Shown in pieces: positions 6,934 to 8,246 of a stretch of 45,850 nucleotides of DNA. Position 1 is the first letter of the stretch; each line of letters opens with the position of its first letter. Both the position numbers and the translations under genes were made by a program. The stretch spans positions 1-45,850 of the forward strand of contig MFOC01000003.1 of assembly GCA_001782235.1 (NCBI GenBank), given 5' to 3'. The DNA comes from Candidatus Levybacteria bacterium RIFCSPHIGHO2_02_FULL_40_18 (lineage in GTDB: Bacteria; Patescibacteriota; Microgenomatia; Levybacterales; GWA1-39-11). The notes below the pieces were generated by a model, which worked only from the letters and a program-made list of their open reading frames with translations, was not told the origin of the DNA and did no database searches.

Positions 6934-7788
6934 ATGGTTACTAAAAAATCTATAGAATCCGAGATCGAATCATTGACTAACATGAAGGGCATTGCCGAAT
7001 CTTTTGAGGAGATTGCCGCACTACGAATCAGAAGAAACCGGGACCAAGTTTTAAAAAACAGGCAGTTTACGACAGAAGTAAATGAAATCTTTCAACAGGT
7101 AAAAATTGCATCCGTCAATATAATTGATCCAAAACAGAAATCTTTTCTCAAAAAAAACGGGAGAACTCTATTTGTATATCTTTCGGCCAACACAGGACTC
7201 TATGGAGATATTGTCAGGAGAACTTTTAATCTATTCGCAAAATATGTAGGACAATGGGCGGATAATGTTCTCATAATCGGAAAGGTTGGGCTTAAACTTG
7301 CCTCTGAACGCAAAATAATAAAGCCAGTTGCTTATTTTGATCTTCCGGACGATACAATTGATACACAAAGTATAAAAAAGATATCTTCTTATCTATTAGA
7401 CTTTGAGAGGGTTATTGTATTTTATGCCAAATTTGAGGGAATTTTACATCAAGAAGAAACAATGATTGATTTATCAGGCAATCCTTCCCTCCCTTCCTTT
7501 ACTCCGCCTCAAGCACCTCAATTTAAAATTAAATACTTTTTTGAACCGGAGGTAACTAAGATTTTGGCATTCTTTGAAACAGAGATTTTCGAAAGCTTAC
7601 TTGAACAGACAGTCAGGGAATTTCAACTTGCCAAGCTTTCATCACGAGTAGTTGGATTAAATAGTGCTATTGATCATATAGAAAATGAGCTTAAAAAAAC
7701 CACCAGTAAAAGGAATGAGTTCTTACATCAAGAATCAAACAGAAAGCAGTTACAAACCTTTTCATCAATGTCCCTATGGGACATATGA
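6934..7788 (+). CDS. atpG: F0F1 ATP synthase subunit gamma
   Basis: Size, operon position between alpha and beta, and N- and C-terminal helical segments (IAALRIRRNRDQV..., ...EFQLAKLSSRVVGLNSAIDHIENEL). The sequence is divergent. Confidence 0.8.
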   Translation: MVTKKSIESEIESLTNMKGIAESFEEIAALRIRRNRDQVLKNRQFTTEVNEIFQQVKIASVNIIDPKQKSFLKKNGRTLFVYLSANTGLYGDIVRRTFNLFAKYVGQWADNVLIIGKVGLKLASERKIIKPVAYFDLPDDTIDTQSIKKISSYLLDFERVIVFYAKFEGILHQEETMIDLSGNPSLPSFTPPQAPQFKIKYFFEPEVTKILAFFETEIFESLLEQTVREFQLAKLSSRVVGLNSAIDHIENELKKTTSKRNEFLHQESNRKQLQTFSSMSLWDI

Positions 7789-7800
7789 TTTACGCAGATT

Positions 7801-8241
7801 GTGGACAAGATTAACGCGGATTTAATACATTCAGATATTACATATGGGATACGTGGGGCAATATTTGATGTATTTAACGAATTAGGCTTCGGTCATAAAG
7901 AGAATTTATACCAGAAGGCATTAGCGCAAGAATTTAATGCTCGAAGAATACCTTACGAACAAGAAGCAGACCTAAAAGTTGCTTATAAAGGTACAGACAT
8001 AGGCACTTATAGACCAGATTTTGTGATAGATGGAAAAGTAATCTTAGAGATAAAAGCATTGGAAATTATGCCAAAGAGATTCGAATCTCAATTAATTCAT
8101 TATTTAAAGACAACAGGGTTCAATCTAGGTTTATTAGTTAACTTTGGGTCACCGAACTTATATATTAAACGACTCGTTTGGACCGGAAATCCTCGAAAAA
8201 TTATCCGCGAAAATCACGTTCTTAATCAGCGAGGATCGTAA
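7801..8241 (+). CDS. GxxExxY protein (PD-(D/E)XK-like family that also occurs in 23S rRNA intervening sequences)
   Basis: [13 protein letters not shown] contains the G-x-x-E-x-x-Y motif. Then [16 protein letters not shown] and LINFG-type LLVNFG. GTG start. The gene sits between atpG and atpD and is flanked by imperfect inverted repeats. Confidence 0.85.
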
Positions 8242-8246
8242 ACTAT

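Follow-up and report, generated by a model that had tools for sequence, protein, structure and literature searches.

The window analysed here, positions 1-45850 of contig C3 (MFOC01000003.1) of Candidatus Levybacteria bacterium RIFCSPHIGHO2_02_FULL_40_18, an ultra-small groundwater bacterium (995-kb genome in 7 contigs, hereafter G000), contains an F-type ATP synthase operon at 2793-10044 with the usual gene order. Between atpG (F1 gamma; 6934-7788, plus strand; PF00231, E 5.2e-22) and atpD (F1 beta; 8247-9764, plus strand; PF00006) lies the subject of this work, a cassette in which a small GxxExxY gene of PD-(D/E)XK fold occupies the loop of an imperfect palindrome made of opposed arrays of short units. 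The open reading frame (ORF; 7801-8241, plus strand) encodes 146 amino acids from a GTG start without an evident Shine-Dalgarno sequence. It matches the profiles PF13366 (PDDEXK_3; E 4.3e-35, 121 bits for a cut-off of 22) and TIGR04256 (GxxExxY; E 2.8e-36, 124.4 bits for a cut-off of 35), and these matches, with the coordinates, bear out the first-pass annotation, which had placed a GxxExxY gene between atpG and atpD from the sequence alone. A whole-genome profile search gives this ORF as the sole PF13366 match in G000. The ORF is in the frame of atpG, four codons past its TGA, and stop read-through would yield a fusion protein; such frame sharing (window 7786-7803) has a chance of 1 in 3.

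The cassette is a real, lineage-specific insertion. The junction was compared with that of 21 orthologous operons (loci L003-L023, from relatives) by its length from the end of atpG to residue 19 of atpD. This length is 516 nt in G000. Of the 21 operons, 16 have 5-53 nt, a single one has about 75 nt, and another three have 115-154 nt; in the remaining operon (G010) atpD is split and the gap is about 53 nt. In G008, whose atpD is 78% identical, the two genes overlap and the ATG of atpD lies inside ctATGGaacacctag. The final atpG codons, tgg gac ata TGA, have counterparts in G006 (tgg aat aca tga) and in G008 (tgg aac acc tag), with which they align. None of the 21 orthologous operons has PF13366 at the atp locus, and the matches found in those genomes are on other contigs or 40 kb off. 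This agrees with the earlier proposal of an inserted gene with inverted-repeat flanks of its own: at this position the gene is missing from the relatives instead of being common to all of them. G000 also has a second F-type ATP synthase operon on contig C2 (C2:20345-23958), the two atpD copies being 41% identical, and the copy in the window has orthologues in only part of the relatives.

The three mid-sized gaps (G006, G009, and G015) hold hairpins. The one in G006 is a 114-nt palindrome of tcaaaat units (L003:1384-1497), and it is a gene-less copy of the arms of a four-helix-bundle (PF05635-type) cassette found 3 kb upstream in the same operon (L132:1310-1756), with 51 of 55 positions identical in the right arm and 44 of 52 in the left. 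This represents copying at the DNA level in a congener. The junction of G009 (L009:2860-3060, minus strand) has a small hairpin of CTACAGT heptamers, a third element type at one site, and the junction of G015 has an AT-rich hairpin. Since the hairpins in these gaps are different, hairpin elements of distinct kinds have entered the atpG|atpD junction in three congeners, each independently.

The arms of the cassette are opposed arrays of a unit of about 13-14 nt (GATTTACGCAGAT / ATCCGCGAAAATC) that is common to related cassettes. The left arm (7785-7822, plus strand) contains two units in the 5′-arm orientation, GATTTACGCAGATT at 7787-7800 and GATTAACGCGGATT at 7809-7822. The right arm (8188-8246, plus strand) contains four to five in the 3′-arm orientation: AATCCTCGAAAAAT (8188-8201), TATCCGCGAAAATC (8202-8215), a worn unit (about 8212-8225), AATCAGCGAGGATC (8224-8237), and, as the last one, GGATCGTAAACTAT (8233-8246), similar to the end of the family, GTAAATCAT. 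Three complementary blocks had been noticed in these flanks, and all are exact: TTTACG (7789-7794) with CGTAAA (8237-8242), GATTAA (7809-7814) with TTAATC (8222-8227), and CGCGGAT (7815-7821) with ATCCGCG (8203-8209). They belong to a longer collinear stem. As RNA, 7784-7822 pairs collinearly with 8202-8242 through 31 pairs (5 of them G-U), with symmetric internal loops only and an energy of -33.9 kcal/mol, a value reached by a fraction of 0.0013 of about 3000 random pairs of the same geometry drawn from G000 (mean -13.9, standard deviation [sd] 5.1). The closing stem is kept in both the minimum free energy and the centroid structures when 7770-8262 is folded, outer pairs being added between 7770-7779 and 8243-8252, and the fold energy is -117.4, compared with a shuffle average of -92.0 ± 6.3 (z -4.0); none of 100 shuffles folds as well. 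A transition-tolerant DNA alignment of the arms scores 17.5 versus 8.0 ± 1.1 for shuffles. The use of RNAduplex on long flanks (120-150 nt) was dropped, as it failed to separate cassettes from same-locus controls.

The limits of the cassette can be set by comparison with its family. Many copies start with ATGATT(T/A)AC and end with GTAAATCAT, and the copy under study runs ATGATTTACGCAGAT ... GGATCGTAAACTAT; as its ends match the family termini, the cassette is placed at about 7785-8246 (~460 bp). Its terminal inverted repeats, ATGATTTACG... and ...CGTAAACTAT, are imperfect and both agree with the family termini. The ATGA at 7785-7788 doubles as the atpG stop and as part of the family terminal motif; hence, the left boundary is resolved only to 7785-7789, within 4 nt, and the right boundary can be placed within 8242-8246. 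Next to the left end of the cassette, ATGGGACAT (7776-7784, plus strand) resembles ATGGACAAT (8247-8255), which lies directly to its right (p ~0.04), and it occupies the site of the atpD start of G008 (ATGGAACAC, overlapping atpG). This likeness is only suggestive of a target duplication.

Part of the arms is translated. The N-terminal (M)DKINADLI and the C-terminal tail of the protein are read out of the repeat arms, as the first-pass annotation had it. Translation from the ATG at 7785 gives MIYAD, just as it does in relatives. The left units have a spacing of 22 nt in this copy, compared with 24 and 27 nt in the two relatives measured (L034 and L054), which puts that ATG in another frame than the ORF; the ORF must therefore start at GTG 7801. 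At the other end, a Shine-Dalgarno-like GAGGA read from the sequence (8231-8235, plus strand), 11 nt before the ATG of atpD, lies inside the right arm and the last codons of the cassette, and it may serve the initiation of atpD.

The encoded protein has a PD-(D/E)XK fold and is a predicted nuclease, as judged from its residues and its model. The PF13366 domain core matched by the profile (7834-8172, plus strand) falls among residues 11-126, the confident core of an AlphaFold (AF2) model with a predicted local distance difference test (pLDDT) of 88.9; the tails are modelled as disordered (pLDDT <50 at residues 1-4 and 135-142). The G-x-x-E-x-x-Y motif is present as GHKENLY (residues 31-37). In 71 sequences, E34, Q97, Y101, and R124 are invariant and Y37, D73, E83, and K85 are at least 90% conserved, and all of these occur in the present copy. 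The PD-(D/E)XK signature is thus complete, with the helix Glu E34, D73, and E83-I-K85, and the nuclease catalytic residues, about whose integrity the earlier reading had asked, are intact in their conserved columns. The top structural matches are nearly all PD-(D/E)XK proteins (Cas4 4ic1, 1wdj, 9y1l, R.SwaI, and Hjc), with middling scores: the best Foldseek match is Cas4 4ic1 (E 7e-4, TM 0.45), and a VIA-align structural comparison gives Z up to 7.1, with 5.7 for Hjc and 5.1 for I-Bth0305I. A sequence search of the PDB found no solved relative at E ≤1, the PADLOC defence models gave 0 families at E ≤0.01, and a PHROGs search with the cassette protein gave no match. In a 2012 survey of the PD-(D/E)XK superfamily, the function of GxxExxY/PF13366 is given as "Unknown" (PMC3424549).

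GxxExxY (PF13366) is a large protein family, present in 9 of 41 related genomes, G000 counted. In these genomes, all 15 parsed copies have opposed short-unit arrays around the gene, and for 9 of them none of the same-locus controls is as good as the best inverted match. A scan of genome contigs added 3 loci, and metagenome contigs yielded 158 relatives, the 80 best being retained; 95 of 98 loci were parsed, 3 frames that ran off the locus being dropped before the counts. For 51 of the 72 distinct cassettes in which the motif is present and the flanks are long enough, the arm score exceeds the shuffle mean by more than 3 sd. The flank complementarity seen in the atp operon is therefore reproduced in other GxxExxY copies. 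The 5′-arm units of the subfamily read GATT(T/A)ACRCNGAT and the 3′ arms are the complements, ATCNGYG(T/A)AAATC. When translated, the arms yield N-terminal MIYTD, MINTD, or INAD and C-terminal NPRKS or NQRKS; in other copies they lie outside the ORF. Unit and tails recur among the best 80 of the 158 metagenome loci and in the 3 genome loci. In the copies examined, the arm unit type tracks the protein subfamily. Covariation of the arms at one unit position is concordant in only 24 of 50 cassettes, mostly of one clade (14 concordant T-class). The closest proteins, 72% and 63% identical, come from metagenome-assembled genomes (MAGs) titled Gammaproteobacteria in the genome-contig scan, and in the 40 searched relatives, which belong to the same genus, family, or order, identity reaches 60% at best. 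At 60-72% protein identity the synonymous sites are probably saturated. These sequence comparisons suggest that the cassette was probably acquired horizontally.

The copies found in relatives are in diverse contexts: between two transketolase halves, after recR, between a glycosyltransferase gene and fpg, and beside an integrase-like gene. A GxxExxY gene of another subfamily, whose arms contain CAGTGGTTGCA, directly follows rpsB in L032, L033, L035, and L037 (G003, G028, G007, and G029, from three families), and in these copies the rpsB frame continues into the left arm. In some loci (L090, L092, L100, L101) short GC-rich stem-loops, such as ggtcctcc...ggaggac, adjoin the arm arrays, and in L099 a second, gene-less hairpin directly follows the cassette. 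The description of GxxExxY in the first-pass annotation as a family associated with rRNA intervening sequences (IVSs) is not supported. Long open frames lie on both sides in 58 of 83 distinct cassettes, the 20 of the remaining 25 that were compared with Rfam have no rRNA match, and no GxxExxY copy was found inside an rRNA gene among these. A survey of ORFs in rRNA insertions of the candidate phyla radiation (CPR) reports 22 PF05635 ORFs and, in the supplement file searched, no PDDEXK/PF13366 (PMC11270868). Literature searches for GxxExxY/PDDEXK_3/PF13366/TIGR04256 returned passing mentions only, and those for IVS proteins, IVSs with RNase III and inverted repeats, S23/four-helix-bundle proteins with inverted repeats, and CPR palindromic elements returned no description of such cassettes. 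The cassette of the atp operon thus belongs to a cross-phylum family of insertable elements for which no description was found in the literature.

Gene-less relatives of the arms are dispersed in the genome. The 14-nt unit pattern, allowing at most 1 mismatch, has 15 matches in G000 versus 1 for the reversed control. These include full gene-less hairpins at C7:113759-113825 and around C7:194682, as well as half-arrays, one of which immediately precedes an ORF at C7:305957. The six sites listed with their neighbouring ORFs are all in inter-ORF gaps or at their edges. A 12-nt unit pattern had suggested no enrichment (75 versus 51.8 in a shuffled genome), a result overturned by the 14-nt pattern and the reversed control. 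In the 41 genomes there are 233 unit matches versus 76 control matches, and the median per genome is 11 matches where PF13366 is present (n = 9) versus 4 in the others (n = 32), with a one-sided Mann-Whitney U test giving p 0.0025 for genomes that are kin and hence not independent.

A second type of cassette is found in the same operon. At 3623-4091 there is a PF05635 four-helix-bundle ("23S rRNA IVP") gene with strong inverted arms of heptamer type (ctcaaa/tgaatca). The PF05635-type gene that G006 has at this junction is a different one, flanked by tcaaaat arms, and G008 has none. A common insertion or processing mechanism for the two cargos, as argued in the first-pass annotation, is a possibility only; the two cassettes of the operon differ in their arm units, which are heptamers around the four-helix-bundle gene and of ~13-14 nt around the GxxExxY gene. 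G000 has 11 PF05635 matches, 2 of them with internal stops. A PF05635 gene also adjoins the GxxExxY cassette of L049 (L049:2163-2690, minus strand), in a MAG titled Gammaproteobacteria. The N-terminus of atpD (window 8250-8300) has an Asn-, Ser-, and Thr-rich extension of ~14 residues relative to G006 and G008; its derivation from heptamer arms is not claimed, the likeness being weak (scores 10-12). Elsewhere on contig C3, at its end, a partial 23S rRNA gene (C3:112506-114568, minus strand) covers model positions 2048-2912 over 2063 nt, with ~1.2 kb of extra sequence inserted.

We regard it as fairly probable that the segment at about 7785-8246 is a discrete cassette insertable at the DNA level, inserted in this lineage only, probably of horizontal origin, and riding the operon transcript. 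It would have entered an originally tight atpG|atpD junction, and its family would be the source, too, of the hairpins and half-arrays without a gene that lie at further junctions in G000. Promoter-like and terminator-like sites in the cassette are at chance level only; with no detectable promoter or terminator of its own, it would therefore be read as part of the atp transcript. A search of 7600-8400 against Rfam returned nothing beyond a chance-level snoRNA match (E 0.98). The operon may tolerate the insertion in three ways: the left end of the cassette would keep the stop codon of atpG, the right arm would supply GAGGA just before the ATG of atpD, and the arms, by pairing in RNA, would bring the atpG stop and the atpD start together. 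The conserved nuclease may be the mobility enzyme of the element itself, acting on the arm units or on their hairpin.

Several observations weigh against this reading. No recognised transposase or recombinase is found in the cassette, whose only ORF is the PF13366 one, with no other Pfam family at E ≤0.01. Its GC content (0.348, versus 0.353 for atpG) carries no signal of foreign composition. The shared ATGA blurs its boundaries, and the flanking direct repeat (ATGGGACA versus ATGGACA) is weak. Among contigs of four DNA runs bridging both boundaries, no empty allele was seen and, in the parts that these contigs cover, there was no joint across the cassette. With strict Watson-Crick pairing of DNA the arms are worn (score 9), and the family ATG being out of frame, the gene may be poorly translated or decaying. 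Gene-less unit arrays are also frequent in some of the genomes where no PF13366 gene was found (19 matches in G022, 13 in G009, and 9 in G011). Neighbouring genes are co-oriented with the cassette in 47 of 58 cases upstream and 43 of 58 downstream, which is uninformative, since ordinary genes show about this level of co-orientation as a matter of general genome organisation.

A different explanation is that the arms act in RNA, forming a double-stranded stem that RNase III would cut, freeing the mRNA of the cassette and separating the atpG and atpD halves as in the processing of IVSs in 23S rRNA; it is compatible with insertion at the DNA level as well. A strong stem of the sense strand closes the whole ORF, the sense stem of this copy is stronger than the antisense one (-44.6 versus -30.7 kcal/mol with outer windows, -33.9 versus -27.5 with inner ones), and the genome encodes an RNase III (TIGR02191, E 3e-73). 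The IVS in helix 45 of the 23S rRNA of Coxiella burnetii, with an S23p/PF05635 ORF that undergoes decay, is excised by RNase III and has tandem heptamers before the ORF (PMC4990558). However, the difference between the strands disappears under DNA energy parameters (-17.4 and -17.8), a stem needs no tandem-unit arms, and the cassette is outside any rRNA gene. A selected RNA stem would be expected to have more sense G-U than A-C pairs. The 51 significant cassettes, when pooled, show the opposite, with 1332 Watson-Crick pairs, 56 sense G-U, 98 A-C, and 182 transversion mismatches, counts in which many cells share ancestry and to which coding constraints on the translated arms may contribute. There is hence no sign of selection for pairing of the sense RNA, and processing of this kind seems rather improbable.

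The complementarity of the flanks of an ordinary resident gene could also be fortuitous, and the best inverted match under strict Watson-Crick pairing is indeed unremarkable, being equalled in 8 of 101 same-locus controls. Yet this is contradicted already by the stem statistics, by the absence of the gene from all 21 orthologous junctions, and by the family-wide unit and tails, which make it highly improbable. A free-standing homing endonuclease would cut cassette-less atpG|atpD alleles and have its gene copied in by repair, the arms being incidental. This would account for a nuclease gene wedged between conserved genes and present or absent among close relatives, and homing enzymes of PD-(D/E)XK type exist, with a weak structural match here to I-Bth0305I. 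It is unlikely, though, given that the arms accompany the gene in unrelated contexts (after rpsB, between transketolase halves, after recR, by an integrase gene), that dispersed gene-less hairpins and half-arrays are not products of homing, and that three different hairpin elements are found at this junction in three congeners. We give equally little credence to the idea that the cargo works for the host, as a defence or addiction module for instance, and that the arms are moved by other machinery, of the host or acting in trans, as for the four-helix-bundle cassettes. Unrelated PF13366 and PF05635 proteins do share the same chassis, occurring both in this operon and as neighbours in L049; PF05635 matches in G000 are several and the PF13366 one is single; and unit arrays persist where no PF13366 gene was found. 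Against it stand the lack of matches in PADLOC and PHROGs and the correspondence between arm unit type and protein subfamily, which fits gene and arms moving together and which shared descent could also explain.

The DNA-level cassette has partial counterparts among known systems. ORF-bearing 23S rRNA IVSs also have a small ORF (~125-145 codons) in the loop of a long stem of inverted flanks, short tandem repeats in the flanks (GACAGAT heptamers in Coxiella), a sporadic distribution suggesting horizontal transfer, and an ORF start region prone to decay; the description of the Coxiella IVS states that the origin and mobility of IVS elements are unclear (PMC4990558). Unlike an IVS, the cassette is in an mRNA operon between two protein genes and not in an rRNA helix, its cargo has a PD-(D/E)XK fold instead of a four-helix bundle, its arm units are of ~13-14 nt instead of 7 as in Coxiella, and its wobble statistics do not favour excision by RNase III. 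Repetitive extragenic palindromic sequences (REPs and REPINs) with their REP-associated tyrosine transposases (RAYTs), like miniature inverted-repeat transposable elements (MITEs), are short palindromes at gene junctions, with many gene-less copies and a rarer gene-bearing form that has the same repeats. The cassette resembles DNA transposons and MITEs in both its terminal inverted repeats and its dispersed related copies. It differs from REP/REPIN-RAYT systems in that its protein is of PD-(D/E)XK type and not an HUH Y1 transposase, its arms are arrays of tandem units and not a single REP hairpin, and no clear target-site duplication is seen. Free-standing homing genes of phages (seg and mob of T4-like phages) are nuclease genes that have entered between conserved genes and that only some close relatives possess; in contrast to these, the cassette has arms, gene-less derivatives, and many unrelated contexts. 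Rickettsia palindromic elements are palindromic, partly translated insertions tolerated in or next to essential genes, and they carry no gene, whereas the cassette does, its arms being translated only as the tails of the cargo protein.

A bolder proposal, which we put forward tentatively and consider doubtful, is that GxxExxY and the arm arrays constitute an autonomous DNA element of an undescribed kind. A minimal nuclease would recognise the units or their hairpin and, across bacterial phyla, move or copy the cassette, together with the derivatives that lack the gene, into junctions between cistrons. By looping the insert out of the host mRNA, the arms would in addition keep tightly coupled operon genes coupled. 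The atpG|atpD junction provides a natural experiment, as four states are found among congeners: an overlap in G008, a gene-less hairpin derived from a four-helix-bundle cassette in G006, a heptamer hairpin in G009, and the nuclease cassette in G000. These four states tie the GxxExxY family to small palindromic, partly gene-carrying insertions, whose origin has been an open question since the discovery of rRNA intervening sequences. The locus supplies concrete substrates for the protein in its arm units, hairpins, and empty site, and it shows reduced genomes absorbing selfish insertions within essential operons without loss of the operons.

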